A DNA stretch of 64,000 nucleotides from Roseibacillus sp. GTDB lineage: Bacteria > Verrucomicrobiota > Verrucomicrobiia > Verrucomicrobiales > Akkermansiaceae. The stretch lies in NCBI GenBank assembly GCA_965242925.1, contig CBDEUM010000030.1, positions 96,001-160,000 on the forward strand, read 5' to 3'. This document shows, piece after piece, positions 45,514-64,000 of the stretch (its first letter is position 1; the number at the start of each line of letters is the position of its first letter). Position numbers and translations under genes: made by a program. The notes beneath the pieces are model-generated. The model was given only the letters and a program-made list of their open reading frames with translations, was not told the DNA's origin and did no database searches.

Positions 45514-47274
45514 TCACGGTCGGGACCGGCCCAACTCGTAGACCTCCGCCAACTCATCTTCACAGACCCGCTTGATCCAATATCTGCCGAGAGTCGCATC
45601 TCGTGGAGGAGCGCCCTTTGGATTGTCCGGGCTTCGTTGGACGACGATGAATTTGACATTGCTCTTGTAGAGTTCTCGCAGGATTTCCGGGGTTGGGAAT
45701 CCCGCCAGGATCTTCCCTTGCAAGATTCTGTTCTCCTCCGGAGAGTGAGTGGAGTAGCCATTAACGAGCGGAACACCGTGAAACGATCCCAGATACATCC
45801 ACTCGCAGGTCAACAGATAGTCCTGAATTCGGCCCGTGGACGGGAACGGCAGACAGGCAATCCCATAGCCCGGAGGGGTCTTCTCGCGCACGTATTCCAC
45901 CCAGACCTTGTGCTGGTTGACATCCGTCACGGTGGCATGCTCCCCCCGTTTGGGATACACCTCGAAAAGGGCCGTTAAGGCGAGGAGGACAAACCCCGCC
46001 TGCAAGGCGGCTCGCAAGCGGGAACTCTTCACGCGATCGCGGCAGGTCTGATAAAGCCCGGTCACGCCCAGGGCGGCGAAAATGACGACGGCCATTTGGA
46101 CAAAGAAGGCGAAGCGGAGGACAGATCTGACTTGCTCAAACCCCGGAACGAGTTCGGTGAGGGTCCACCAGGGCTGCCAGGTGCCCAGCCTCAGGTTGGG
46201 GCCAAAGGACAGCAGAAAGGCCAGGAGCGCCATCACCAGAATGAAGGACGCCCACCGCCGGGTGTCGAGACGAGTCAGCCCGTAATAGACGCCGACGAGA
46301 GCCAGCAGGAACTTGATCACGCCCGACGAGAGCATTCTCCAGCTCTCTGTCTCCGGGCTGATATCGATGAGCTGGCCCCCGTAGGCCCGAAGATAGTCGC
46401 CTGGAGTGGCCGAGAGGTAGGTAACCAATTCCCGTTCCAATGCAACCGCGTGCTCCTGCGAGACTTGACGAAGTTCGTAGGCAAAGGGGGCTGCGACAAG
46501 CAGGGCGACGAAGACCGCCAGAAGCCAGTGAGGGAGCTCACGATATTTGATCCATTGCCTCCACAAGGTGGGCGCCGCCCCCACCAGGAGAAGGGCGAAG
46601 AACAGTCCCTGGTGCATGGAGGTGACAAGGCTGATCCCAACGGCCACTCCAAGCTCCAATCCCCTCCAGCGCGTGGGTTGGCGGCAGAGTCGTTCAATGG
46701 CCGACCAGGTCCAGAGAATGCCCCACAGTGGAACCAGGTGACTGATGCCCAGTTGCCAATGCACGATCGGCAGCAGGACCATCGCGGTGCCCACCCAAAG
46801 CCCCGTCCACGGCCCCATTCCATACACTTTAGCGAGTCGCTGCGCGAAAACCCCATTCAAGATCAGGGAGAGCCAGAGGAAAACGTTGTAGGCGAGAATG
46901 CGCGATCCCGTGAGCCAGACAACGGGAGCGACCAGCAGAGTGGTCGGTTGGGGCTCATTCATCGCCAGTGCCCCCGGAGAAGGAAAATAGATAGGGGCGT
47001 TCCAATAGCCCCCAAACCCCGGAATCACTTGATGAGCGTTCCACCACAGGATCCAGACGTTCGACAAGGCAACCGTGGCAATGGGTTCCGAACCGAGTGG
47101 CAACTGAGACAGGGGAGATGAAATGACGGGCCACGTCAGCCCCAGGGCGAGCACGAGGTAGACGAAGACCCCCCCAAGGATCCACCGCTGCTGATAACAT
47201 TGAGCGGATAGCGCCTTTCGCGCGTTCTGGAATTTACTCCCCGAAACGCGGTCTGCACTATCGCCAGAACTCAT
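45514..47274 (-). CDS. Polytopic membrane protein, GT-C/YfhO-like glycosyltransferase candidate
   Basis: Many TMs; WILWWN...YWNAPIYFP...LAMNE, YLSATPGDY, VPGFEQVRSVLRF and HGVPLVNGYS; start taken at ATG 47274. Confidence 0.72.
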   Translation of the reverse strand: MSSGDSADRVSGSKFQNARKALSAQCYQQRWILGGVFVYLVLALGLTWPVISSPLSQLPLGSEPIATVALSNVWILWWNAHQVIPGFGGYWNAPIYFPSPGALAMNEPQPTTLLVAPVVWLTGSRILAYNVFLWLSLILNGVFAQRLAKVYGMGPWTGLWVGTAMVLLPIVHWQLGISHLVPLWGILWTWSAIERLCRQPTRWRGLELGVAVGISLVTSMHQGLFFALLLVGAAPTLWRQWIKYRELPHWLLAVFVALLVAAPFAYELRQVSQEHAVALERELVTYLSATPGDYLRAYGGQLIDISPETESWRMLSSGVIKFLLALVGVYYGLTRLDTRRWASFILVMALLAFLLSFGPNLRLGTWQPWWTLTELVPGFEQVRSVLRFAFFVQMAVVIFAALGVTGLYQTCRDRVKSSRLRAALQAGFVLLALTALFEVYPKRGEHATVTDVNQHKVWVEYVREKTPPGYGIACLPFPSTGRIQDYLLTCEWMYLGSFHGVPLVNGYSTHSPEENRILQGKILAGFPTPEILRELYKSNVKFIVVQRSPDNPKGAPPRDATLGRYWIKRVCEDELAEVYELGRSRP

Positions 47275-47479
47275 CGGCGCGACGGTATGGAGGCCGATCA
47301 GGGGAGGCAAGGAGGAAGACGGTGTCAGGCGGCCTTCCAACAGAGGCACACAGAGACCCGCCGAACACGGACGACGGACCAGAGAGCCTTCACCGAGATT
47401 CTCCAAACGGCTCTCTCAGAAATTTGAGAAACCCAGTGGGAGGGGATCTCCCGGACGTTTTCGAATCGCAACGTTCTGC

Positions 47480-48637
47480 CTACTCAAGCGTCTTTTCCAG
47501 GTCCAGAAAACTCATATAGAAAGAAGTGAAAATGAATTGGATTCCGATCATGACGATGAAAATCGATGCGATCGCAAGCTGGGTGTAGGGGATATTGACG
47601 TAGGACAGATTGTTGGCGAACTTGTAAATCAGGAACAGCGTCGTGATGCCTGCAATTCCGCCGAGAGCCACAAGAATTCCGCCGACCACGAGACCGCGCT
47701 CAAGGGTGAAATGTTTCCTGAAGAAGGAGCTCATCTTGTCGTCTTTGATGAGTCCCTTGGCGCTGTTATATGTGATGCAGTGGATTCCAAACAGGACGAC
47801 TTGAATGCCGATGAAAAACAGAGCCCCGGCAAAGGAAGAAGTTGAAATGCCCGGGGACTGCCCGAAAATTCGAAACCAGTCAAACTGCATCAACCCAAGT
47901 AACACCAGGGCAGCGGCTGAAAGAACAAGGCCAGGGTAAACAAAGAGGAACTTGGGACAAAGTGCCAGCATGACTCGCAGGTGTCGCCAGCCATCCCGGA
48001 GCGGATGAAGGTGAGGGATCCGTCCTTCCGGGTTTGGGTAAAGACTGATCGGGATTTCCTTGATGACCAGTTCTTCAAGGGTTGCCTTGATGAGCATTTC
48101 CGAGGCCAGCTCCATTCCGTTACACCTGAGATTCAAGCGTTGCATGGGGTCGCGTTTGAAGGCCCGCAGGCCACAGTTGATATCGGAGACCTTTGATTTG
48201 AAGAAGATCCGCATCACCAGGGTCAATACGGGTGTTCCGACAAGTCGGTTCAGGAAAGGCATGGCTTTCCTGTGAATCTTTCCACCATAGCGGTTTCCCA
48301 TCACAAGATCAGCACCCGTTCCTTCGCGCAATCGGCGCATGAGGTTTCCGATTTCACCAAAGTCATACGTGTCATCGGCATCCCCCATGATCACAGCATC
48401 CCCATGAGCTGATTCAATCCCGGTGCGGATGGCGCTTCCGTAGCCCTTGACCTCTGCGTGGACAATTCGAGCTCCGGCGGCTTTTGAGATTTCGATGGAG
48501 CGATCCGTGGAACCGTTATCGACAACGACAACCTCTCCCTCAAGACCGCTCTCTTCAAGTGCGCGCAGGGATTTCTCGACACAAATGCCTACCGTGTCTT
48601 CTTCATTGAGACAGGGAATAATAACGCTGACGTCCAT
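47480..48637 (-). CDS. GT2 glycosyltransferase (polyprenol-phosphate sugar synthase-like) with C-terminal TMs
   Basis: VSVIIPCLNEE, VVDNGSTD, GYGSA, MGDADDTY, DINCGLR and RDGWRHL. Confidence 0.93.
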   Translation of the reverse strand: MDVSVIIPCLNEEDTVGICVEKSLRALEESGLEGEVVVVDNGSTDRSIEISKAAGARIVHAEVKGYGSAIRTGIESAHGDAVIMGDADDTYDFGEIGNLMRRLREGTGADLVMGNRYGGKIHRKAMPFLNRLVGTPVLTLVMRIFFKSKVSDINCGLRAFKRDPMQRLNLRCNGMELASEMLIKATLEELVIKEIPISLYPNPEGRIPHLHPLRDGWRHLRVMLALCPKFLFVYPGLVLSAAALVLLGLMQFDWFRIFGQSPGISTSSFAGALFFIGIQVVLFGIHCITYNSAKGLIKDDKMSSFFRKHFTLERGLVVGGILVALGGIAGITTLFLIYKFANNLSYVNIPYTQLAIASIFIVMIGIQFIFTSFYMSFLDLEKTLE

Positions 48638-48651
48638 AACGAGGGCGGTCT

Positions 48652-50130
48652 TCAGCCTCCGGGTGAGGGGTTGGGGCGGGCGGACTGCAGGAACTCCACG
48701 AGGGTGGCCGCAACCACCCGGTGCCCGTCGGGAGACCAGTGCGTGTCATCTGGATAATAGAGCATCCGCCCCGTCTTCGCCGCCTCCCTGAGAGACGGAG
48801 TAAGGTCGAGAACTGCGATGGCCGGAGAGTGCTTCTGAATCGAACTCAGGAGGATTCCGGGCAGGCGGTTCACCTCCCAGGTCTTGACGCAAGATCCCGC
48901 CTCGAAGCGGCAGAGATCCCCATAGACCCGGAATTTCGAGGGAGCGAAGGCCACCACGAGCTGGATATCGTTTTCCCTGCAGAGGTTGCCCGCAATGGAC
49001 AAGGCCTGCAGGGTCACCTCCAGTCCCTCGACCTCCCGCTTCATCTCGGGCGTGAAAGGCCCACTCGCATATCCGAACCAGATCTTCTCCTCGCCGTTTT
49101 CGGTCGGCAGGTAGCCCAACCGGTCCCGGCCGTCTGGAGGAGGCACGCGTTCGAAGCGCTTCGCTAGCCAGACAAATGCGTTACTCGTGAAGGCACGGCA
49201 CGTCCACGACGAGTGATTGCGCTCGATCATTGGCCAGTTTTCTATGAACCCCTGGTAGCGCCAGGTGTCCGAGAGGTCGTTGGCCTCAAAGAAGACCCAC
49301 ACGCAGACACGAGGCTTCAAGGGCAGGCCAAATCTGTCCAGGACGTGCAATTCCTGTTGGGGCCCATAGTAACTCTGGCCGAGATTGACCACGGTCGCTC
49401 CCATCATCTCCGACATCTTCGTGGTAAACATGTCCCCGGCGAGGACCCCGCCGGCCTCCACGAAGGAGTCTCCAATCACGACGTAGTCGGCCTGCTCGTA
49501 GTCCTCCTCATTGCGAAACCCATTGCGGTCATACCTCAGGTCGTAATCGAAGGTCGTCACCGGCGGCGTATTGTACCAGAAGGCCACGTCCCCCCCGATC
49601 ATCTTTCCGCGCTCCTGGTAGTGGGGACGGCGGATGTGGATGAGCTTATCATCCAGAACATTCCGAGTGTCCTGCCAAGCGGGCACCCGTAGCCCGAGGA
49701 CGCGACGGAAGTCCAGCCCGCTGAAAGCCACTACGAGTTCAATCAAGCCGACGGCAAATACGATGGACCCATTGGCAGCAATGAATCGCACCGCCTTCTG
49801 CCGCCAGCTCCGGGAGGAGAACACCCAATACGGCGCCCAGCAGGCCAGGTATGCGATCCCCGTCACATAAACGAGCGGCATTGATGGGAGAGCAGGCCGA
49901 CTTTCTCCCGGGTGTGGCACATCCTCAGCCCTGATTCCATACACCCACAACTGAACCACCACCACGATCCAGCACAGGCCGACGAGCCCCGCCACTGCGA
50001 CCGGTATCAACCTGGCCTCTTTCGGACGGGCAGCCCCTCCCTCCGGGCGTGACGTGGCGGAATCTTGTTCGCTGCTGGATACCATCGGTTTATCAGGGGG
50101 GAAGGAAGGATGGCCGCGGGCAAGTTTCAC
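48652..50130 (-). CDS. SGNH hydrolase-like protein (AlgX/AlgJ-type O-acetyltransferase candidate)
   Basis: N-terminal TMs; IGDSF, NLG...GPQQE, FEANDL and DDTHWSPDGH. The start may be 50085. Confidence 0.85.
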   Translation of the reverse strand: MKLARGHPSFPPDKPMVSSSEQDSATSRPEGGAARPKEARLIPVAVAGLVGLCWIVVVVQLWVYGIRAEDVPHPGESRPALPSMPLVYVTGIAYLACWAPYWVFSSRSWRQKAVRFIAANGSIVFAVGLIELVVAFSGLDFRRVLGLRVPAWQDTRNVLDDKLIHIRRPHYQERGKMIGGDVAFWYNTPPVTTFDYDLRYDRNGFRNEEDYEQADYVVIGDSFVEAGGVLAGDMFTTKMSEMMGATVVNLGQSYYGPQQELHVLDRFGLPLKPRVCVWVFFEANDLSDTWRYQGFIENWPMIERNHSSWTCRAFTSNAFVWLAKRFERVPPPDGRDRLGYLPTENGEEKIWFGYASGPFTPEMKREVEGLEVTLQALSIAGNLCRENDIQLVVAFAPSKFRVYGDLCRFEAGSCVKTWEVNRLPGILLSSIQKHSPAIAVLDLTPSLREAAKTGRMLYYPDDTHWSPDGHRVVAATLVEFLQSARPNPSPGG

Positions 50131-50342
50131 CCATCGCTCGGGATTGTCCGGACAACGCAGGGTTCTTCAAGTCTAATGTAGACATCGGGGCGCAGCGTTC
50201 GTCCAGCCAGGACGCTCCAAAGCCCGCCCCCGTGGACTCAATCGCGACACCACCGTTGACGCCTCCGGGTATTGCGGTGGCTGGGCTGAAGAATCACGGG
50301 GCAGCAGCGGCCACCTCTTCATCCTCAGATGACCTCGATGGC

Positions 50343-50453
50343 TTACTCCGTATGGGTGCCCTTCCTTGCTTCCTTTGTCCGTGCAGGGAGGAGAGCCAGC
50401 AAGAAACAGATGGCGAAAAATCCGAAAGAGAGAGATCGCAAAAAGGAATCCAT
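50343..50453 (-). CDS. Possible 36-aa single-TM small protein
   Basis: MDSFLRSLSFGFFAICFLLALLPARTKEARKGTHTE, preceded by TGAGGAA. Confidence 0.3.
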   Translation of the reverse strand: MDSFLRSLSFGFFAICFLLALLPARTKEARKGTHTE

Positions 50454-50595
50454 TTCCTCAATTTTGCGCTGGTGGTCCCAACCCTCTTTTTGCAATGATT
50501 TCCTGTCATAGGAGCAGGAAGGGAGATTCCGTTCGCCTTCATTTCGATCCCCTTTCGCAACCCAACCATTTTTCGCCCAATCCACAGAAACCAAG

Positions 50596-53500
50596 TTGAT
50601 GATCACGAAGAAGAAAAATCTGGAACTTCTTATCCTGGCCTCGGGAACGCTCGCTCTGGCCACCACCTCAGCGCACTCCGGCACTGTCCCAACCTGGAAC
50701 TTCGGAAATAATGGTGACGGCACGACCCAGGGATGGACGGTGACGAGTGGCCATTTCGCTAATGATGGCAACGGTATTGAGCCCGCTCAGGCCAATGGCA
50801 ACAGGGCTCACGACGCCGCTCACCCGGTTGCGGTCCTGACCTCCCCGACCATCAATTTCGGCAGTGTGCATGCGAGCGACAGTGTGATCGATATTCTTTG
50901 GGAAGGGGGACGGGGAAACCAGCAAGACTCCGCCGACCCTGCGAACCTGGCTGCGGTGATGAACTATAACGGCGGCAACACGAACAACACCGGCCAGAAA
51001 GGGGTTGGCTTTCGCAACCTGACCACCGGGGCCTATGATCTTGTCGATTACGACCCCCAAGACGGTGGCGGTATTCAGACCGGTTCATACACCTTGGCTG
51101 ATCTGACCGCAGCGGGCATCGATGTCGGCGCCAGCTACCAGTTGGATTTCTTCACCACCGACGATGGTGGTTGGGGTTGGACTCGATTGAACGAGGTCAA
51201 CCTCGATGCAAATGCGATCGCTCCCGTGGATCCGCCGTCGACAGACAACGACAACGACACCCTCCGCGACACCTGGGAGCAGGCCCAGACAGGCAACCTG
51301 ACCGACCTGGACGGAACGGCCTGGGACGGCAATGGCGTGACCCCCGGACCCGGCGCGGCAACAGGTGACTTTGATGGAGATGGCAGCAGCGACAGCCAGG
51401 AGCAGGACGAGGGAACCGATCCCGCCAATGCCGATAGCGACGACGACGGCTCCAGTGACGGCGAGGAAGCTGACCTTGGCACCAACCCGCTCAATGCCGA
51501 CAGCGATGGAGATGGCCTGCTCGACGGGGTGGAGACCGGCACCGGCACCTTCGTCAGTGCCAGTGACACCGGCACCGATCCCCTCAATCCCGACACCGAC
51601 GGAGACAATGCCTCCGACGGGACCGAGGTCACCCAGAACACCGATCCCAACGATGCCGCCAGCAGCTCCTGTCCGTCCACGCACTTAACCCTGGCACTGT
51701 GCCAACCTGGAACTTCGGAAATAATGGTGACCGCACGAACCAGGGATGGACGGTGACAGTGGCCATTTCGCTAATGATGGCAACGGCATTGAGGCCGCCC
51801 AGGCAAATGGCAACAGGGCTCACGACGCCGCTCACCCGGTTGCCGTCCTCACCTCCCCGACCGTCAATTTCAGCCTCCTCAATGTGAGCGGGACCGGCAA
51901 TGTGATCGATATTCTCTGGGAAGGGGGACAGGGAAACCAGGACGGCATTTCCCCCGACCCTGCGAACCTGGCGGCGGTGATGAACTATAACGGCGGCAAC
52001 ACAAACAACGCCGGTCAGAAAGGCCTCGGGTTCCGTAACCTGACCACCGGGAACTATGATTTTGTCAGTTACGACTCCGAGAACGGTGGCGGAATTCAGA
52101 CGGATTCATTCACCCAGGCCGATCTGGTCGCCAATGGCATCGATCCCGGCGCCAGCTATGAATTGGATTTCTTCACCACCGACGATGGTGGTTGGGGCTG
52201 GACTCGATTGAACGAGGTCAACGTCCATCCCGGCGCAATCGCTCCCGTGGATCCGCCGTCGACAGACAACGACAACGACACCCTCCGCGACACCTGGGAG
52301 CAGGCCCAGACAGGCAACCTGACCGACCTGGACGGAACGGCCTGGGACGGCAATGGCGTGACCCCCGGACCCGGCGCGGCAACAGGTGACTTTGATGGAG
52401 ATGGCAGCAGCGACAGCCAGGAGCAGGACGAGGGAACCGATCCCAGCAATGCCGACAGTGATGATGACGGCCTCACCGATGGGGAGGAAGCTGACCTTGG
52501 CACCAACCCGCTCAATGCCGACAGCGATGGAGATGGCCTGCTCGACGGGGTGGAGACCGGCACCGGCACCTTCGTCAGTGCCAGTGACACCGGCACCGAC
52601 CCGCTCAATGCTGACACCGACGGAGACAATGCCTCCGACGGGACCGAGGTCGTCAATAACACCGATCCCAACGATCCCGCCAGCAGCCCTGCCCGTCCAC
52701 CACTTACCCCTGGCACCGAGCCAACCTGGAACTTCGGAAATAATGGTGACGGCACGATCCAGGGATGGACGGTGACCAGTGGCCATTTCGCTAATGAGGG
52801 CAACGGCATTGAGGCCGCCCAGGCAAATGGCAACAGGGCTCACGACGCCGCTCACCCGGTTGCCGTCCTCACCTCCCCGACCGTCAATTTCAGCCTCCTC
52901 AATGTGAGCGGGACCGGCAATGTGATCGATATTCTCTGGGAAGGGGGACGGGGAAACCAGCAAGACGCCGCCAACCCTGCGAACCTGGCGGCGGTGGTCG
53001 ACTATAACGGTGGCAACACGAACAACGTCGGCCAGAAAGGCCTCGGGTTCCGTAACCTGACCACCGGGAACTATGATTTTGTCAGCTACGATCCCCAAGA
53101 CGGTGGCGGAATTCAGACGGATTCATTCACCCAGGCTGATCTGGTCGCCAACGGCATCGATCCCGGCGCCACCTATGAATTGGATTTCTTCACCACCGAC
53201 GATGGTGGCTGGGGTTGGACTCGATTGAACGAGGTCAACGTCCATCCCGGCGCAATCGGCCCATCTCTCCCGCCGACAGACGACGACAACGACACCCTCT
53301 TCGATACTTGGGAACAGGCCCAGGCAGGCAACCTGACCGACCTGGACGGAACGGCCTGGGACGGCAATGGCGTGACCCCCGGACCCGGCGCGGCAACAGG
53401 TGACTTTGATGGAGATGGCAGCAGCGACAGCCAGGAGCAGGACGAGGGAACCGATCCCACCAATGCCGATAGTGATGATGACGGCCTCACCGATGGGGAG

Positions 53501-55021
53501 GAAGCTGACCTTGGCACCAACCCGCTCAATGCCGACAGCGATAGAGATGGCCTGCTCGACGGGGTGGAGACCGGCACCGGCACCTTCGTCAGTGCCAGTG
53601 ACACCGGCACCGACCCGCTCAATGCTGACACCGACGGCGACAATGCCAGCGACGGGTTTGAGGTGGGCGAAAACACCGATCCGACCGATGTGTTCAGCAC
53701 TCCGGGCCCCCCCGATTTTCTCGGGGTTTGGAACTTCGGAAATAATGGTGACGGCACGACCCAGGGATGGACGGTGACCAGTGGCCATTTCGCTAACGAT
53801 GGCAACGGCATTGAGGCCGCCCAGGCCAATGGCAACAGGGCTCACGACGCCGCTCACCCGGTTGCGGTCCTCACCTCCCCGACCATCAGTTTCAGGAATT
53901 CAAGCATGGCCTCTCCGGTGATCGAAATTGATTGGGAAGGTGGACGGGGAAACCAGCAAGGCTCCCCCAACCCCACGAACCTGGCGGCGGTGATGAACTA
54001 TAATGGAGGCAACACAAACAACATCGGTCAGAAAGGCCTCGGGTTCCGCAACTTGAACACCGGGAACTATGATTTTGTCAGCTACGATCCCCAAGACGGT
54101 GGCGGCGTTCAGACTGAGTCATTCACCCGCTCTGATCTGGTCGGCGGCGGTATCGACATCAACGCCCCCTATGAATTGGATTTCTTCACCACCGACGATG
54201 GGGGTTGGGGCTGGACCCGATTGAACGAGGTGAGGGTCGATGCCACCCTTAATCCCCGGCCCCTGCTCCGTCCCCAGCTACGCATCACGCAGAGTGGCGC
54301 GAACCTCACCTTCGAGTGGGACAGCGAGGCCGGCATGATCTACAACCTGCGCAGCGACGCCGATCTCCAGCCTGAGCCGGCGCTATGGCCCATTCACGGG
54401 ACGAACGAGAACATCGACGCTACACCCCCCCTGAACACCCTCACCATTCCCCTGCCTGACGCCAATGAGCTATTCTTCGTGATCGAGGGATTCCCCAAAC
54501 CTCCGCTGGTACTTTTCGAAGATAACTTCGAATCAGGTGTGGGTGACTGGGTCACGGTTGTCAATGACCCCAGCCGCAATACCCTCTGGGAACTGGGCAC
54601 GCCTTCCGGCAGCACGGGACCGCTCACGGGCGCCGACGGCTCGGCCAACGCCTGGTCCACCAACCAGGGGGACTACGGACCAGACTCGGATATTTCCCTC
54701 CTCTCTCCGCCCATCGACTTCAGCGGGTTGCCGAGCGCGGAGTTGACCTTCGAGGTCTTCCGGGATGCCGACGGATTCGCAGACACCTCGACTGTCCGCT
54801 TCCGCCGGGTCACTGACGGTGTGCAACTGGGGCCGGACAATGCCTTGGACATGGCTCTCTTCGATATCGACTACGAAACCGAGATTATCCAGGTTCCGAT
54901 CGAGGTCCTTAACGAGACCGAGAATGTTCAAATCGAATTCAACTTCGTGAGCGACAGCAGCCTGGATGGCTACAGCGGCCTCTCCATCGACAACGTGAAA
55001 GTGGAAGGCGTCGATCCCTGA
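50596..55021 (+). CDS. Large secreted repeat protein: four ~175-aa uncharacterised domains separated by three Ca-binding DxDxDG (TSP3-like) linkers, plus C-terminal beta domains; frameshifted at about 51667-51760
   Basis: ORFs 50596-51756 and 51746-55021 join into one. Signal peptide; domain WNFGNNGDGT.QGWTVT...FFTTDDGGWGWTRLNEV four times; linkers such as GTDP.NADSDDDG. Alignment with the next repeat shows +1, +1 and -1 indels. Confidence 0.88.
50695..54240 (+). repeat. Direct tandem repeats with a period of about 1.02 kb (domain + TSP3-like linker)
   Basis: tggaacttcggaaataatggtgac recurs at about 50695, 51708, 52727 and 53729. The linker DNA is nearly identical between copies. Confidence 0.95.
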
Positions 55022-55497: not shown

Positions 55498-57372
55498 CTA
55501 CTTGGGAGGCGCACCATTTCCTTGGGCGATCATGCCCCGGACGACGGTCAGATTCCGCCGGGCATCTTTGTGGTCGGGTTGAACCTCGAGGGCATACTCA
55601 AGATAAGTAACTGCGCGAGCGAGTTGCCCTTGTTGGGCAAGCGTCATTCCGAGGAGGGCATTGAAATTGGCCGAGTGGGGATTCTCCGCCACCGCCTTTT
55701 CCAAGCAGGCTTGGGCGTCGGCCCATCTCTTCTGTGCGATCAAAAGACCGCTCAATATTTTGTGGTTCTTCTCCTCTCGCGGATTGCTCTTAATGGCCTG
55801 CTCGAGATGGCCCGCAGCCTCGCCAGTCTTTCCCTTCTCGATAAGAAGGGTAGCCAGATTGGTGTGGGATCGGGCGTGATCAGGCTGAACACGCAACGCC
55901 TCACGGAAACTGGCTTCGGCCAGCGCGTGTTTCTTCTGGGAGATATAGGAAATTCCCAGATTGTTATAGGGCCCGGCATTCTCGGGAAACATCTTGATCA
56001 GTTCCTGATTCTCGGCGGCGGCAGATTGAGCGTAACCGCGCTGTTGCAGGTAGGTTGCAAAACGATATCGTGCCTCGAATTGGTTGCGTCGGCGCGCCAC
56101 GGTTGGCACTGGCAGGATGCGTCCAGGGACCGCAGCCGAGCGGGCAAACCGTTCACGCAGGGTGCCTTTCGAATGCTGGGTGTCGGCCGCAAGGTCGTCG
56201 ACATTCAAGCGCCCCTTGTAGATGACGGAGATGCGGCCATTGCCGTCGATCAGGAAACTGACCGGAACCGGCAAGGGCTGCGAGCTGGTGATCAGGTCAT
56301 TGTGGATCTTCTGGAGGTAGGCGATCAGCTTCCTGGGAGCTTGACCGGTGGTGAAGGGCAATTTGAGACGTTTGGCAAGTTTGCGGGCGACCGATGCGTC
56401 CACGGAGTCATCCAGCTGATCAACCGCCAAGGCGAGGACCTCAATGCCTGCGTCACGAAGCTCGTCATTCCGCTCGGACAGTTCCTCCAATTCGCCCACA
56501 CACGGCGTGCACCAACTGGCCCAGAGATTCAGTAAGATCGATTTCCCCTTCCCGGTTGGGAACTTCCGCACCTCACCGGAGAACGTCTGGTAGCTCAAAT
56601 CCGCCATCGGAAGCAAGGTCGCGAGCGGAATGCGGGCCGTGCTGTCCGGGTCAGGCAGGGTGACAGGCACGGGCGAAATTGCGGTCTCACGGCGTTTGGT
56701 GGCTGCTGGCACCGCCACCCCGCTGCCCTGAACCAGCCGATGGCGTCGATCGATTTCCAGACCGGTGAATGTTTCGATCTCGCCGCCCGGCCATCGCACA
56801 CGCACCAATTCGATCTTCTCTGCTCTGCCCAGCCCGAAATGCATCCACTTGGTGGATTGGGAGAGGAAGGAATCGCCGGCTCGCAGCGTCTTGCTCAGCG
56901 CCGGTCGCGTTGAATTACTCGAAGATCCGCCGGCCAGGACGACCTCCACCCGCGCGCCAATCGCGTCCCGGTTTGTGGTTCCGCCAGCTCCCTGCAGGCG
57001 CAGGGCGAGATGGTGGTTCTCCGACGGGACATCGTTGCGGAAAAATCGGAGCCGCGGGGCGTTGCGATTGGAAATCCACACGTCAAGGTCGCCATCGTGA
57101 TCCCAATCGACGGTGATCAGCGCTCGTCCATCATCCGGCAAATCGATTCCCGATGTCGCCGAGATGTTGGCGAATCGAGCGACAGGTGCTGCGCCCGCCA
57201 CAGTCGAAGCCGTGGTCGTGTTCAGGAAGCAGCAATTCCGCTCCCTGCCACTGTAGGAGCGCCCACGGCGAATCATTTCGCCAAATGTGGCGTTGGCCCG
57301 ATCCAATTCACTCGATCGCACTTCGTTGACATCGTTCAGGGAGCGCGACACGACCTGCCGCCAGTAGAAACT
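55498..57372 (-). CDS. C-terminal part of an FG-GAP/ASPIC-UnbV (CRTAC1-like) protein with a TlpA-like thioredoxin domain and TPRs; in frame with the upstream ORF across a UGA
   Basis: SFYWRQVVSRS..., SYSGRERNCCFLN, DWDHDGDLDVW, NRDAIGARVEV...GDSFLSQSTKWMHFGLG...VRWPGG (ASPIC/UnbV), NLWASWCTPC and C-terminal TPRs. Confidence 0.88.
   Translation of the reverse strand, partial: SFYWRQVVSRSLNDVNEVRSSELDRANATFGEMIRRGRSYSGRERNCCFLNTTTASTVAGAAPVARFANISATSGIDLPDDGRALITVDWDHDGDLDVWISNRNAPRLRFFRNDVPSENHHLALRLQGAGGTTNRDAIGARVEVVLAGGSSSNSTRPALSKTLRAGDSFLSQSTKWMHFGLGRAEKIELVRVRWPGGEIETFTGLEIDRRHRLVQGSGVAVPAATKRRETAISPVPVTLPDPDSTARIPLATLLPMADLSYQTFSGEVRKFPTGKGKSILLNLWASWCTPCVGELEELSERNDELRDAGIEVLALAVDQLDDSVDASVARKLAKRLKLPFTTGQAPRKLIAYLQKIHNDLITSSQPLPVPVSFLIDGNGRISVIYKGRLNVDDLAADTQHSKGTLRERFARSAAVPGRILPVPTVARRRNQFEARYRFATYLQQRGYAQSAAAENQELIKMFPENAGPYNNLGISYISQKKHALAEASFREALRVQPDHARSHTNLATLLIEKGKTGEAAGHLEQAIKSNPREEKNHKILSGLLIAQKRWADAQACLEKAVAENPHSANFNALLGMTLAQQGQLARAVTYLEYALEVQPDHKDARRNLTVVRGMIAQGNGAPPK
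57345..57361 (-). promoter_or_regulatory. Candidate bacterial SECIS element
   Basis: UGA (57375-57373), an 11-nt spacer, then GCGGCA-GGUCG-UGUCGC: a 6-bp stem with one G-U pair and a G/U-containing apical loop. Confidence 0.65.
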
Positions 57373-58281
57373 TCACAAGTCATCCGGATCGTCGCCGGTA
57401 ATATTCCCGTTGGCCACTGCCAGGTCCTCCCATCCATTGTTATTGATATCGATAAAGCTGGTCCCCCAGGCCCAGCGGGCCCTGGCCACGCCGGCCTCCT
57501 CGCTCACGTCCTCGAACGGGCCGTTATCGAGATTCTTCAGCAGAGTGCTGCCACGCGCAAAACGTTGAAGCCGCGTCCGGACCTCCGGTGATGCATTCGG
57601 TTTAAACTGCTCCTGAAAGGTGATTCGGTTGCCGGCCGACGAGAACATGTTGCTGATGTAGACGTCCATCCAGCCGTCGCGATTATAGTCACCCCAGGTA
57701 ACCGCCATTCCCGAAGCGCTGTCCTCGACGTCGGCTTCGCCAGCAACGTCTACAAACTTGCCCCCGTTGTTACGGTAGAGGCAATTCCGTCCGAAGTCAT
57801 TGGCGACGTAGAGATCCTGGTCGCCGTCGTTGTCGTAATCTTCCCAGGCCGCGGCCAAACTCCAGCGCCCGTTGTTGCTGTCCAGCCCGACCTCGGCAGT
57901 CACCTCACGGAAGCTCCACTTGCCTTGATCTGTTGTTTCATTGCGGAACAGGCTGTTGTAGCCGCCGACGTTGGAATCGTGATAGACAAACCGTCCTGTA
58001 ACGACGCCTCTCGATTCCGACTCAGGACCCGCCGAGCCATTGCGCCAATAGGTGCAGACGTAAAGATCCAACCGGCCATCCTGGTCGTAGTCCGCTGCAC
58101 TCAGAGACATCAGATCGTGGGCGGTCGGCAACAACGTCCGATAATCAAAACGGCCGTCGCCGCGGTTGGCGGCCAGCACGATGCCCCCCATAATTGCGAC
58201 CGCGAGGTCCTGGTCCCCGTCGTTGTCCAGGTCCACCAGGAGGGCACTGCGCGATCCCTCGAGCCAATTCACGCCCGCCAC
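57373..58281 (-). CDS. Middle part (FG-GAP repeats) of the ASPIC/UnbV protein, ending at an in-frame UGA
   Basis: DLDNDGDQDL, ADYDQDGRLDLY, EDYDNDGDQDLY, GDYNRDGWMDVY and DINNNGWEDL; ends ITGDDPDDL-UGA. Confidence 0.88.
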   Translation of the reverse strand: MAGVNWLEGSRSALLVDLDNDGDQDLAVAIMGGIVLAANRGDGRFDYRTLLPTAHDLMSLSAADYDQDGRLDLYVCTYWRNGSAGPESESRGVVTGRFVYHDSNVGGYNSLFRNETTDQGKWSFREVTAEVGLDSNNGRWSLAAAWEDYDNDGDQDLYVANDFGRNCLYRNNGGKFVDVAGEADVEDSASGMAVTWGDYNRDGWMDVYISNMFSSAGNRITFQEQFKPNASPEVRTRLQRFARGSTLLKNLDNGPFEDVSEEAGVARARWAWGTSFIDINNNGWEDLAVANGNITGDDPDDL

Positions 58282-59288
58282 TTTTCCGATTCGTCGCGCA
58301 GGGTGCCGTCGGCGTTCTGAACATAAAGCCTGTTAGGCAGGCCATCCTCCTGACAGAGATAGAGATCGTCCAATCCATCACCGTTGACATCACCAAGCGC
58401 CACCCCCGGAATGCCGAGCCAGAAAAAATATTGCGTATCCTGAGTGCGGTGCAGCCAGTGACTGAAACCACGGCCAATCTGTTGCTGGTAGGAGGCGTTG
58501 GATCCCAATACCGACTGAGTGCAATCGGAAAACAGGGTTCGCCCGCCGGTGCGGGAAGTCACCTGCTCGACATCGCTCACGTCGAGCTGCAGGAGCAGCG
58601 GCCGCGAGTCGCCGGCACTCATGGCCCAACGCGCACGCCACGTCGCGTGCTGTTCGATGACGCCCATTTCCGTGATCCCGGAAATCGCCACATACTGCTG
58701 GGTGGTAAACGATTCGATCTCCTGCTGGACCCGGAAAACCTTCACCTCGAATCGCAGTTCTGCGGCGCCTTCAAGAAGGGTTCCGATCTCGCCAATTGCG
58801 GCCTCGATCTCTGCGATACCTCGTCGGGGGGCTGCATCCGGTTGGGCCGCCATGCGTTCGACGGTGAGGGTGGAATCCGTATAGACCACCTCAGATCCCT
58901 TCGGTTGCAGCCCATTAAAAGAAAAGCCCTCCGCGACGATTTGTCTCAGAGCCGCATCATCCATTTGCCCGGGATGCAGAATCATCTTACCGAGGCGCTT
59001 GAGTTGCTCCTTGGCATGTTCACTGAGCGCCTCGCTGGGCCATCCGTCGGCGCTGGGATCATCCAAACGTTCCATCGGAACGCTGGGCGGTGAGGGCACC
59101 TGGTACAATTGGCCGGTTGAGGCACCGGATTCCAAGACTTCATCCGAGCGATTGGCCAGAATCATTACTATGATTGCCGCCACCGCCAAAACAGCGATGG
59201 CGACTCCGACGAGCACCCGGCGTCCCTGCTTCGATGAGCGAAGATTGGGTTCGGATTGTTGAGTGATGCGGTTATCCGACGATTTCAT
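58269..59288 (-). CDS. N-terminal part of the same FG-GAP/ASPIC protein, separated by a frameshift near 58278
   Basis: Signal anchor RRVLVGVAIAVLAVAAIIVMILA; first FG-GAP repeat GDVNGDGLDDLYLCQ...PNRLY. ESEKW continues as GVNWLE in another frame. Confidence 0.85.
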   Translation of the reverse strand: MKSSDNRITQQSEPNLRSSKQGRRVLVGVAIAVLAVAAIIVMILANRSDEVLESGASTGQLYQVPSPPSVPMERLDDPSADGWPSEALSEHAKEQLKRLGKMILHPGQMDDAALRQIVAEGFSFNGLQPKGSEVVYTDSTLTVERMAAQPDAAPRRGIAEIEAAIGEIGTLLEGAAELRFEVKVFRVQQEIESFTTQQYVAISGITEMGVIEQHATWRARWAMSAGDSRPLLLQLDVSDVEQVTSRTGGRTLFSDCTQSVLGSNASYQQQIGRGFSHWLHRTQDTQYFFWLGIPGVALGDVNGDGLDDLYLCQEDGLPNRLYVQNADGTLRDESEKWRA

Positions 59289-61942: not shown

Positions 61943-63352
61943 TCATCGCTTTTCCCGGAACTGAGGATTCGGCTTCATGGCTTCCGCTCCCACCCTGCGC
62001 TTCCACCCTTGCAGGACTTCGTTCAACTCGTTCACCAGCTTCGTCTCCTTCGCCGCCAGGTTCCTTTTCTCCCCGATATCATCTTCCAGGTCATACAACT
62101 CAAATTCTTCGCGTTCAAGGCACTCGATGAGCTTCCACTTTCCTCTCCGCACGATCGACACTGGCGCACTCTGGGGATGCTTGTTGTAGTGCGGGTAGTG
62201 CCAAAACAGCTCCTTGCGCCTGATATTTCCGGAAGCCTTGACAATCGGGGCCAGGCTGACCCCGTCCACGTGCTGGTGCGGGCGGGAGGGCAGTCCCAGC
62301 ATCTCAAGAATGGTCGGATAGAGATCGTTCGTGATCACGGGGGTCTCGCTGACCCTTCCTTCCCCCTTCACCCCTGCGCCCGCCACGATCAAGGGCACCC
62401 TGATCCCTCCCTCGTAGTGTGAACCCTTGTTGGCGCGCAGCGGATCATGCCTCGTGGCACCGGCGAACCCCCCATTGTCGGAGGTGAATATCACGAGGGT
62501 ATTCCCCGCCAGTTTCAGTTCCTCCAACTTCTCCATCACCCGTCCCACGCTCTCATCCACGCTTGCCACCATGGCGGCATAGACCGGACTTCCCTGCCGC
62601 TCATTCTTGGGAACCTTGTTGAAGCGGGAGACCAACTCCTTCCTGGCCTGCAGAGGCGTGTGTACGGCATAGTAGGGAAAGTAGAGAAAGAACGGTCGAT
62701 CCCTGTTCTTCTCGATCAGCGCCAGGGACTCGGTAGTCAGGCGGTCGGTGAGGTATTCCCCCTCCCTGCCATCCGGCAGGGTGATTTTCTGCACCCGTTC
62801 CCCGGTGGTCGGGATCTTCCAGCTCCCCTTGTAGGGATAAAAATAATGCCCGGGCGCCCCGTGTTCACTTCCGCCCACATTCACCTCAAACCCGTGGTGG
62901 GCCGGCAACGAAAAGGGCGGACCTCCCAGATGCCATTTCCCCACATGCAACGTCCGGTAGCCGGCCTCGCGCAGGGCCTCGGCCAGGGTCACCTCCTCCA
63001 GCGGCAGGCTACGCAGGAAACGGCCTTCGCGCATCCGGTGTCCGCTTGCACTCCAACGACCAGCCGGCAGCCACTGGGTCATCAGGTTCCGGGCCGGATA
63101 CTTTCCCGTCATGATGCTGGCCCGCGTGGGCGTACACACCGCGCAGGCCGCGTAGGCGTCGGTGAACCGGATGCCACGGGCCGCGAGTCGGTCGATATTG
63201 GGGGTGCGATAGTAGGTGCTCCCCTGGCATCCCAGGTCCCTCCAGCCGAGATCATCGACCAGAAAGAGGATCACGTTCGCCCTCTCAGCCGCCATTACGG
63301 CCGCTGGCTGCAGAAACAGACAGACGGCAACAAAGAGAACTGCACGCGCCAT
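61943..63352 (-). CDS. Secreted sulfatase (formylglycine-dependent, Cys-type)
   Basis: Signal peptide from ATG 63352; NVILFLVDDLG, CTPTRASIMTG (CxPxR), VGKWHLG, FTSDNGG and YEGGIRVP. Confidence 0.95.
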   Translation of the reverse strand: MARAVLFVAVCLFLQPAAVMAAERANVILFLVDDLGWRDLGCQGSTYYRTPNIDRLAARGIRFTDAYAACAVCTPTRASIMTGKYPARNLMTQWLPAGRWSASGHRMREGRFLRSLPLEEVTLAEALREAGYRTLHVGKWHLGGPPFSLPAHHGFEVNVGGSEHGAPGHYFYPYKGSWKIPTTGERVQKITLPDGREGEYLTDRLTTESLALIEKNRDRPFFLYFPYYAVHTPLQARKELVSRFNKVPKNERQGSPVYAAMVASVDESVGRVMEKLEELKLAGNTLVIFTSDNGGFAGATRHDPLRANKGSHYEGGIRVPLIVAGAGVKGEGRVSETPVITNDLYPTILEMLGLPSRPHQHVDGVSLAPIVKASGNIRRKELFWHYPHYNKHPQSAPVSIVRRGKWKLIECLEREEFELYDLEDDIGEKRNLAAKETKLVNELNEVLQGWKRRVGAEAMKPNPQFREKR

Positions 63353-63411
63353 CACCTCGCAGCCTGCACGGTTCCTGCCCTCTTGCCACTCCAAAGGATC
63401 CAGCTCTCCGC

Positions 63412-64000
63412 CTACCAGTCGCGCAACAGTCTCCAGCAATACCACTGCATCCGGGGGAGGTGAAACGGCCCCTTGAAATGATTGCCTTTGGCCGGGTTGG
63501 AAATCCTTCCGTCGCGGTGCACATAACCGAACCACTCCCCGTGTTCGCGATCGGCAAAGGTCCGGTGAGCATAGTCATGCACCAGACGATGCCACTCAGC
63601 ATAACGATCTTCTCCCGTCATCTGGTAAGCCAGCAGGGTGGCAGTGATGGCCTCGCAGTGCGGCCACCAGAACTTCATGTCGTGCCAGTATTCCTGGACC
63701 GGCTTGCCATGCACATCAACGAAGTAGAACAACCCGCCGTGTTCCTCGTCCCATCCCCGCTTCCACATGTAGTCAAGCATCCGGCACCCGAGCGCTGTGA
63801 GCTCCGCGTCTCCTCCCCGCCGCTTTGCCTCGTGCAGGATGAACCAGGCCGCCTCGATCGCGTGCCCGGGATTGAGGGTCCGCCCGTCCACATGATCGCT
63901 CAATGAACCATCCGGCCCGACCTGCTCGAAAACGCACTCGAGATCATCATTCACGAAGAGACGGATCTCCCCGATGAACTCGTCGATCACTTTCTCGGCC
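63412..64000 (-). CDS. AGE family epimerase (N-acylglucosamine 2-epimerase-like), 5' end outside the window
   Basis: NPGHAIEAAWF, GWDEEHGGLFYF, MKFWWPHCE, GEWFGY and KGPFHLPR. Confidence 0.93.
   Translation of the reverse strand, partial: AEKVIDEFIGEIRLFVNDDLECVFEQVGPDGSLSDHVDGRTLNPGHAIEAAWFILHEAKRRGGDAELTALGCRMLDYMWKRGWDEEHGGLFYFVDVHGKPVQEYWHDMKFWWPHCEAITATLLAYQMTGEDRYAEWHRLVHDYAHRTFADREHGEWFGYVHRDGRISNPAKGNHFKGPFHLPRMQWYCWRLLRDW

Follow-up and report, generated by a model that had tools for sequence, protein, structure and literature searches.

An in-frame UGA followed by an fdhF-like hairpin very probably encodes selenocysteine in a CRTAC1-like propeller protein of Roseibacillus sp.

The recoding of UGA by a hairpin lying within the open reading frame (ORF) is a textbook mechanism. 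In fdhF of E. coli K-12, which encodes a cytoplasmic molybdoenzyme, the UGA is followed by 11 nt and then by a 17-nt hairpin inside the ORF. This SelB-binding selenocysteine insertion sequence (SECIS) contains the heptamer GCAGGUC, displays GGUC at the top of the hairpin, and has a bulged U that matters for SelB. In the current study, a 64,000-nt stretch of Roseibacillus sp. (assembly GCA_965242925.1, contig CBDEUM010000030.1, positions 96,001 to 160,000; hereafter the window, whose numbering is used for all coordinates given without a contig label) was analyzed, and a gene on its minus strand was found to be interrupted by a single in-frame UGA at 57375-57373. As in fdhF, an 11-nt spacer and a 17-nt hairpin come after this UGA within the frame, with the heptamer GCAGGUC and with GGUC at the hairpin top. 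The codon very probably specifies selenocysteine (Sec), judging from the aligned relatives. An earlier note on this DNA had proposed a non-classical selenoprotein in which an fdhF-type SECIS directs Sec insertion at this UGA, and that proposal is strongly supported by conservation of the codon and of the hairpin and by the Sec machinery. The term fdhF-type holds in part: the 11-nt spacing, the 17-nt length, and GCAGGUC agree, but GGUC lies one base nearer to the UGA than in E. coli, and whereas the fdhF 17-mer pairs only with one U left unpaired, the helix here is a perfect 6 bp without a bulge, so that the element is not an fdhF-type SECIS in the strict sense. Unlike the fdhF product, moreover, the protein encoded here is an unrelated, predicted exported propeller.

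By sequence, the only solved relative of this protein is CRTAC1 (E = 1.1e-11), which shares the FG-GAP propeller and the UnbV_ASPIC domain but has no thioredoxin or TPR part; none of the present analyses marked CRTAC1 as a selenoprotein. A weak match of the thioredoxin-like domain was also obtained with the NCBIfam model NF041054, 'ResA-like WAxxUGC motif-containing protein' (30.9 bits against a cut-off of 300). Like the protein predicted here, NF041054 combines Sec with an extracytoplasmic TlpA/ResA-like domain, but its Sec lies inside a CxxC-type motif, whereas here the corresponding motif, WCTPC, is all-Cys and the predicted Sec is located ~290 residues upstream in a propeller insert. Four candidates with the same domain description were listed by Kim et al. 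(2016, PLoS One, Table S9; PMC4807772), each annotated as a pair of neighboring genes divided by a UGA; bSECISearch detected a SECIS in 3/4, and the residue in the closest non-Sec match was Gly, not Cys. The family described here is matched to the Table S9 candidates by their description and by the planctomycete loci of the hairpin scan reported below. No discussion of these candidates was seen in the available part of the main text of PMC4807772. Similarly, the terms ASPIC, UnbV, FG-GAP, CRTAC, VCBS, and TPR were not found in the available main text of a 2026 review of the prokaryotic selenoproteome (PMC13188914), nor were ASPIC, UnbV, FG-GAP, and CRTAC found in that of the BSepDB paper (PMC13326102), a text separate from the BSepDB family list itself. 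Searches for literature tying selenoproteins or selenocysteine to FG-GAP, ASPIC, UnbV, CRTAC1, or VCBS returned nothing relevant. As far as these partly available sources go, the family appears to be in print solely as unexamined candidates of the 2016 supplementary table, in agreement with the proposal that it is not a classical selenoenzyme family.

The locus is laid out as follows.

59288-58269, minus strand: ORF1, 339 codons, N-terminal part with the first FG-GAP repeat and the anchor; terminated by TGA in this assembly owing to the frame change
58273..58285, minus strand: frame-change site between ORF1 and ORF2; the window is 2 bases longer here than contigs of three other metagenome studies
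58281-57373 including the TGA (57376..58281 sense), minus strand: ORF2, 302 codons, FG-GAP propeller blades; C-terminal end GNITGDDPDDL
57375-57373, minus strand: in-frame UGA, the predicted Sec codon; TGA in the same column in relatives, continuous frame
57345..57372, minus strand: SECIS-like element, with an 11-nt spacer (57372-57362) and a 17-nt hairpin (57361-57345); codes for SFYWRQVVS
57351-55498, minus strand: ORF3, 617 aa, ASPIC/thioredoxin/TPR; GTG start as annotated by gene callers
55498..57372, minus strand: remainder after the predicted Sec, 624 codons plus TAG (55500-55498)

Across the site, the minus strand reads GAT GAC TTG TGA AGT TTC TAC TGG CGG CAG GTC GTG TCG CGC. Between the GTG at 58281 and the terminal TAG at 55500-55498, the frame contains a single stop, the TGA at 57375-57373; it is open for 302 codons upstream and 624 codons downstream and reads GDDPDDL-U-SFYWRQVVSRS across the codon. 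Two statements of the earlier note were thus borne out on the minus-strand sequence, namely that the TGA ends the FG-GAP ORF with the same frame running on into the 617-aa ASPIC ORF, and that an 11-nt spacer (57372-57362) separates the UGA from a 17-nt hairpin (57361-57345).

To assess conservation of the codon, 101 genomes of the same taxonomic family were searched at E <= 1e-20 with a 267-aa query spanning it (codon at residue 109). Homologues were found in 28 of the 101 genomes, and each listed match that spans the site had exactly one TGA, at identities of 31-100%; two stop-free rows cover query residues 133-256 and 136-259 only, that is, the part downstream of the codon. When this genome and 29 fetched loci of relatives were re-aligned by tblastn, the stop coincided with the U position of the motif DL-U-S-x-[YFWL]-W-R in 42/42 spanning matches (13 loci of this genome and 29 of relatives), and besides these there were one non-spanning match and one distant paralogue gapped at the site. 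Neither TAA nor TAG was seen at this column in the family genome search, the tblastn re-alignment, or the hairpin scan; the homologue alignment that had been suggested as a check therefore came out in favor of a conserved UGA. The TGA was also unchanged in contigs of three independent DNA metagenome studies, and the sense codon that was named in advance as a refutation was not seen there. A lone in-frame stop within a long gene is the usual mark of a sequencing error or of a recent nonsense mutation in a pseudogene. At 57373-57375, the chance of this is negligible, and the explanation was ruled out by the codon conservation and the independent contigs: the same codon occurs in 42/42 relatives, in at least 109 further loci from four phyla, and in the contigs of the three studies. 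In the RNA run X16, the gene was partly covered by low-depth contigs and no contig of this gene crossed the TGA, so that this run gave no evidence of expression or readthrough.

The further loci came from a scan for the hairpin only, in which one genome per species (185,579 species) was searched with the pattern AGT-N6-TGGCG-N-CAGGTC-N-TG-N-CG, the preceding codon being left unspecified; the counts are lower bounds for this one sequence variant of the hairpin. At least 118 loci matched the pattern. They comprised 109 homologues with TGA directly before the hairpin, 4 homologues with a sense codon, and 5 unrelated chance matches, which places TGA before the hairpin in 109/113 homologues among the matches listed. 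By record label, the at least 109 TGA loci belong to Verrucomicrobiota (54), Planctomycetota (45), Acidobacteriota (7), and Myxococcota (2), with 1 unlabelled. Separately, 0/300 further genomes of the phylum matched at E <= 1e-20, a result of little weight on breadth given that the sample consisted mostly of genera already without the gene in the family search.

The hairpin can form six pairs, GCGGCA/UGUCGC, around the loop GGUCG at 57355-57351. Pairing was examined in an ungapped alignment of 34 sequences (33 distinct) that excluded a copy with the same sequence as the window and seven sequences from the distant subfamily. The six-pair helix was formed in 97.5% of cells, compared with 11-66% when the 3' partner was slid by 1-3 columns. 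Two pairs were changed on both sides: C-G was replaced by A-U once, and the fourth pair was A-U in 16, G-U in 14, G-C in 2, and U-G in 1. The covariation score was reached by 1/500 shuffles. Codon usage was examined at conserved amino-acid columns of the 34 sequences. Ser at +1 was AGT in 33/33, Gln at +6 was CAG in 33/34, Val at +7 was GTC in 33/34, and Ser at +9 was TCG in 31/31. Synonymous entropy was 0 bits at +1 and +9 and 0.19 bits at +6 and +7; all other listed conserved columns, including Asp at -2 and Leu at -1, ranged from 0.68 to 2.24 bits, and synonymous sites were frozen in codons +1 to +9 only. The single free third base in the stem, that of Arg at +5 (CGG 16, CGA 16), pairs with U in both cases. 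This frozen codon choice at conserved columns is the strongest evidence that selection acts on an RNA element here, as read from the alignment. Together with the pairing frequency and the two compensatory changes, it answers positively the question of whether the hairpin is conserved, with some covariation. The seven distant paralogues have a 5-7 bp helix in a shifted register, with GGUC at an unchanged distance from the UGA; four of them form GGCG-Y-R-C / GGUC / G-Y-G-C-G-C-U (two as 6 bp), in one the helix is reduced to 5 bp under a larger loop, and L060 forms a different hairpin.

In seawater metagenomes, the summed contig depth rose 10- to 20-fold at 57328-57405 and at 57796-57834. The contigs in these peaks often match only there and presumably derive from paralogues of many organisms whose DNA is almost the same over the SECIS and over one FG-GAP motif. 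The depth peaks were rejected as support for the RNA element, because the peak at the protein motif was equally high and the contigs came from other paralogues or organisms.

The position of the hairpin bears on the reading in which the TGA is a true stop and two proteins are made, with the C-terminal one restarting at the GTG 22 nt downstream (57351) and the hairpin acting in coupling or restart. The annotated start of ORF3, GTG (57351-57349), does sit within the hairpin, at the junction of its loop and 3' arm, and public gene callers annotate halves of 617/618/616 aa and 637 aa. Nevertheless, TGA is the sole stop at this position, with neither TAA nor TAG seen there, and the halves always share one frame. 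The seven codons from the TGA to the GTG encode SFYWRQV, which is found also inside uninterrupted homologues, and the C-terminal half lacks its own signal peptide although it contains a TlpA-type domain. Moreover, AlphaFold2 folds the junction as one domain with a predicted local distance difference test score (pLDDT) > 90, and the TGA allele is confined to genomes with Sec machinery. We regard two separate proteins as highly improbable.

Components of the Sec machinery were detected in this genome. They include selB (287.5 bits, above the cut-off), selD (L009, G000:C14:573853-574776; 366.6 bits), and a tRNA-Sec with anticodon TCA (L011, G000:C30:304340-304429), which lies on the contig of the window ~144 kb past the window end. 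The selD gene itself has one in-frame TGA and reads SSCAGUASK; it apparently encodes a Sec-containing selenophosphate synthetase. Across the family, selB was found in 49/101 genomes, among them 27/28 of those with the TGA allele. In the 28th (93% complete, 440 contigs), selB was not found, and selA and tRNA-Sec were present; among the 52 genomes without selB, this one alone has a homologue at E <= 1e-20. Sec machinery was thus found in 28/28 TGA-bearing genomes sampled, which agrees with the predicted co-occurrence of the machinery with the UGA allele.

Several observations weigh against reading the UGA as a Sec codon. When the 76-nt stretch 57310-57385 was folded alone, z was -0.69 and 46/200 shuffles were at least as stable; its minimum-energy fold uses another pairing, without the hairpin. 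Because the lone fold is not unusually stable, the significance of the hairpin derives solely from the comparison with relatives. The covariation is modest, with double changes in only 4 cells, because the sequence of the element is nearly invariant, and part of this invariance overlaps the protein motif WRQV, which is kept also by non-Sec homologues. No Rfam match was found in 57000-57700 at E up to 10. Four homologues of the hairpin scan (L138, L147, L186, and L189) have identical hairpin bases preceded by a sense codon (AAT in two, TCG in two); among the matches listed, all such cases are labelled Acidobacteriota or Sulfotelmatobacter. In these, either Sec was lost recently or encoding the protein motif is by itself enough to produce a SECIS-like hairpin. 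Of the machinery genes that the earlier note had asked for, selB, selD, and the tRNA-Sec were located as described above, but selA was not found in this genome, whose assembly is 89.87% complete; selA was present in 5/5 relatives checked, one of which carries this gene region at 100% identity.

Further points of this kind come from the protein. Cys opposite Sec in non-Sec homologues is the usual criterion for predicting a selenoprotein. Among 47 uninterrupted homologues from a protein search (two second-site motif matches having been dropped), the flanking DL and SFFWRQV were conserved, and the residue at the Sec column was S in 14, D in 9, C in 7, A in 5, G in 3, E in 2, Y in 2, R in 2, Q in 1, N in 1, and W in 1. 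The expected replacement of Sec by Cys was accordingly seen in 7/47, with other residues in the rest. No Cys is conserved across paralogues as an evident partner of Sec, and none is nearly invariant in alignment A2. The CC pair that had been pointed out near the UGA (ERNCC) is present here at 57243-57229 but is not conserved among paralogues, in which the residue after ERN/ERH is Cys in 6/12. Finally, the anchor-bearing N-terminal ORF is out of frame in this window, and for this reason this copy may fail to yield the full protein.

The residues at the Sec column also bear on whether the UGA might be read through without Sec-tRNA(Sec), for instance by a near-cognate tRNA (Trp, Cys, or Arg) that the hairpin stimulates, or by some local SelB-free recoding. 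Because no Cys is conserved at the aligned column, Sec chemistry is not obviously required, and the site is occupied by W in one homologue and by R in two. Set against this, the hairpin has the spacing and the GGUC loop of the SelB-binding fdhF element, and every genome with the allele, among the 101 sampled, also has Sec machinery. In addition, TGA is a normal terminator in this genome, where it ends 9/13 paralogues; TGA is not globally reassigned here, given that terminator usage. Readthrough of either kind is very unlikely.

Under Sec insertion, a ribosome arriving at the UGA would meet the hairpin 11 nt downstream, which would offer its GGUC loop to SelB carrying Sec-tRNA(Sec). Sec would be inserted, and translation would run on through SFYWRQVV into the remainder. 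The product would be a single extracytoplasmic, membrane-anchored protein made up of a CRTAC1-like propeller with an ASPIC domain, followed by a TlpA-like thioredoxin domain that carries WCTPC and then by TPR repeats. Its features are listed here.

59216-59154, minus strand: hydrophobic membrane anchor, ORF1 residues 25-45
ORF1 residues 300-334, minus strand: first FG-GAP repeat (FG-GAP_3, 23 bits, below cut-off)
57376..58281, minus strand: FG-GAP repeats of ORF2 (Pfam FG-GAP_3 111.9 bits, FG-GAP 71.7 bits)
57243-57229, minus strand: ERNCC in a helical insert, in the part after the predicted Sec
57111-57082, minus strand: FG-GAP-like repeat VDWDHDGDLD, in the part after the predicted Sec
About 56964-56740, minus strand: UnbV_ASPIC domain (Pfam, 61 bits)
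About 56592-56227, minus strand: AhpC/TSA-type thioredoxin-like domain (AhpC-TSA 46.2 bits, cut-off 26; Redoxin 35.6 bits)
56514-56500, minus strand: WCTPC motif, within the thioredoxin-like domain
About 55968-55516, minus strand: TPR repeats (Pfam TPR families)

The AhpC-TSA match and the position of the motif confirm the WCTPC thioredoxin domain that had been named beforehand. This domain did not reach the equivalog level of TlpA (50.8 bits, cut-off 230) or ResA (50.5 bits, cut-off 170), and no NCBIfam model was found for the propeller and Sec part, for which just sub-threshold TPR and TlpA-like matches were obtained. An AlphaFold2 model was made of 525 residues (window 58281-56707) with Sec read as Cys and with a 52-row alignment; its mean pLDDT was 90.9 and its predicted template modelling score (pTM) was 0.92. 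In this model, Sec is residue 303, the first of the helix 303-313, and lies directly after the strand 298-301; a second helix, 324-338, completes the Sec-bearing propeller insert ahead of the next blade. The best structural match was the crystal structure of murine CRTAC1 (9etn_A; E = 3.9e-24, TM 0.60), followed by fungal FG-GAP lectins and integrin alpha propellers. The sequence alignment with CRTAC1 skips query residues 224-367, which hold the Sec-bearing helical insert. Given that the modelled Sec caps the N-terminus of a helix after a strand, often alongside a TlpA-like domain, it would suit a reactive selenolate, and its role would most likely be redox or nucleophilic at the cell surface.

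Apart from the gene in the window, 12 further loci with the same motif and an in-frame TGA were found in this genome (G000; contig label and coordinates).

C30:359103-363137
C28:2600-6448
C12:87972-92066
C12:49681-52245
C29:916-4473
C20:14671-18162
C22:98098-101673
C13:130509-134273
C13:146032-148479
C17:48941-50971
C34:104392-107031
C37:735-2789

The C37 copy resembles the C28 copy and has additional stops past the Sec codon, and the C17 copy is apparently short at its N-terminus. When 11 further paralogues of this genome (677-1,365 aa on readthrough) were analyzed, FG-GAP and UnbV_ASPIC were present in 11/11. An AhpC-TSA match at E <= 1e-5 was obtained in 4/11, and a CxxC-like motif was seen by eye in others; two of the 11 stop just past the ASPIC domain and retain Sec. 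In 9/11, an N-terminal hydrophobic stretch ending in Cys and resembling a lipoprotein signal was recognized by eye, without a predictor, and the paralogues appear to be mostly lipoproteins. The CRTAC1-like UGA family may supply most of the selenoprotein genes of this organism.

This genome also has more distant FG-GAP/ASPIC paralogues (25-27% identity) without the whole DL-U-SFYWRQVV motif, among others the following.

G000:C38:237568-238257, without the motif
G000:C30:368521-369201, without the motif
G000:C30:355796-356521, without the motif
G000:C13:143163-143723, without the motif

Since these distant paralogues are without the motif, the Sec-bearing helical insert defines one subfamily.

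The age of Sec in this subfamily was explored with a quick, midpoint-rooted tree of 87 rows, in which all U rows were drawn from a single family and the choice of U and non-U rows is biased. U forms occupied the deepest branches, and some non-U forms fell among them; the U state needs at least 4 changes on the tree, of which well-supported branches force at least 2. Owing to the rooting and the sampling, this only hints that Sec may be old and may have been repeatedly replaced. A more far-reaching proposal can be put forward only tentatively, and we would not expect it to hold in full: Sec would be ancestral and central, serving as the helix N-cap nucleophile of a new class of cell-surface selenoenzyme, in a family that expanded in aerobic marine Verrucomicrobiota and Planctomycetota, and the non-Sec forms would be secondary losses.

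Whether the gene in the window is itself intact depends on the site at which ORF1 and ORF2 overlap by 13 nt in different frames. In close relatives, ORF1 and ORF2 form a single 637-aa protein, which reads ESEKGGVNWLEG across the site (P0046). In the contigs of the three DNA metagenome studies, 2 bases fewer were present at 58277-58283, in two distinct versions: X1 is without 2 letters at 58282, and X6 and X12 are each without 1 letter at 58277 and 1 at 58280. The full frame of ~1,258 residues is present in these other samples and absent from this assembly; the earlier note's product of ~1260 aa accordingly exists as a frame elsewhere and is broken here by two extra bases near 58280. The two-base excess may reflect a polymorphic site at which the consensus is an artefact, or else a true strain lesion. 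If the lesion were true, the copy would be broken in this strain, with the anchor detached and the Sec part unexported or unmade, and the family would still be functional. The different frames as assembled and the shorter contigs of three other studies are in line with such a break. On the other hand, the site is polymorphic, with two different shorter versions, and an assembler can fuse variants into a false consensus; no other lesion occurs elsewhere in the gene, and near-identical 637-aa and 617-aa halves are plentiful in other assemblies. A broken copy is possible, and we consider it rather unlikely.

The neighboring genes examined (45514-55021 and 61943-63535) encode two bacterial TSP3-repeat proteins (50596-51756 and 51746-55021), an AlgX-like SGNH protein, a family-2 glycosyltransferase, and a sulfatase. 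None of the genes in these intervals is a redox partner adjoining the selenoprotein gene.

Taken together, the gene in the window almost certainly belongs to a selenoprotein family that is large, scarcely documented so far, and common among marine bacteria. The family is unusual in that its predicted product is large (~1,250 residues), would be exported, and is unrelated to the usual small redox folds, and it reaches up to 13 loci per genome and at least four phyla, mostly of marine bacteria. Every copy is split into two 'genes' by gene callers, and proteome, pangenome, and selenoproteome counts are therefore systematically wrong. Moreover, Sec stands opposite a mostly non-Cys column and is nevertheless kept in every paralogue, which challenges the Cys/Sec-pair criterion and may be the reason why the family was overlooked. 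For the CRTAC1/ASPIC family, a putatively reactive helix N-cap residue in a propeller insert, often with a TlpA-like fusion, provides a handle on function that points to surface redox chemistry. If Sec is indeed ancestral and central, with a dozen or more copies per genome, these marine heterotrophs would be unexpectedly selenium-dependent.

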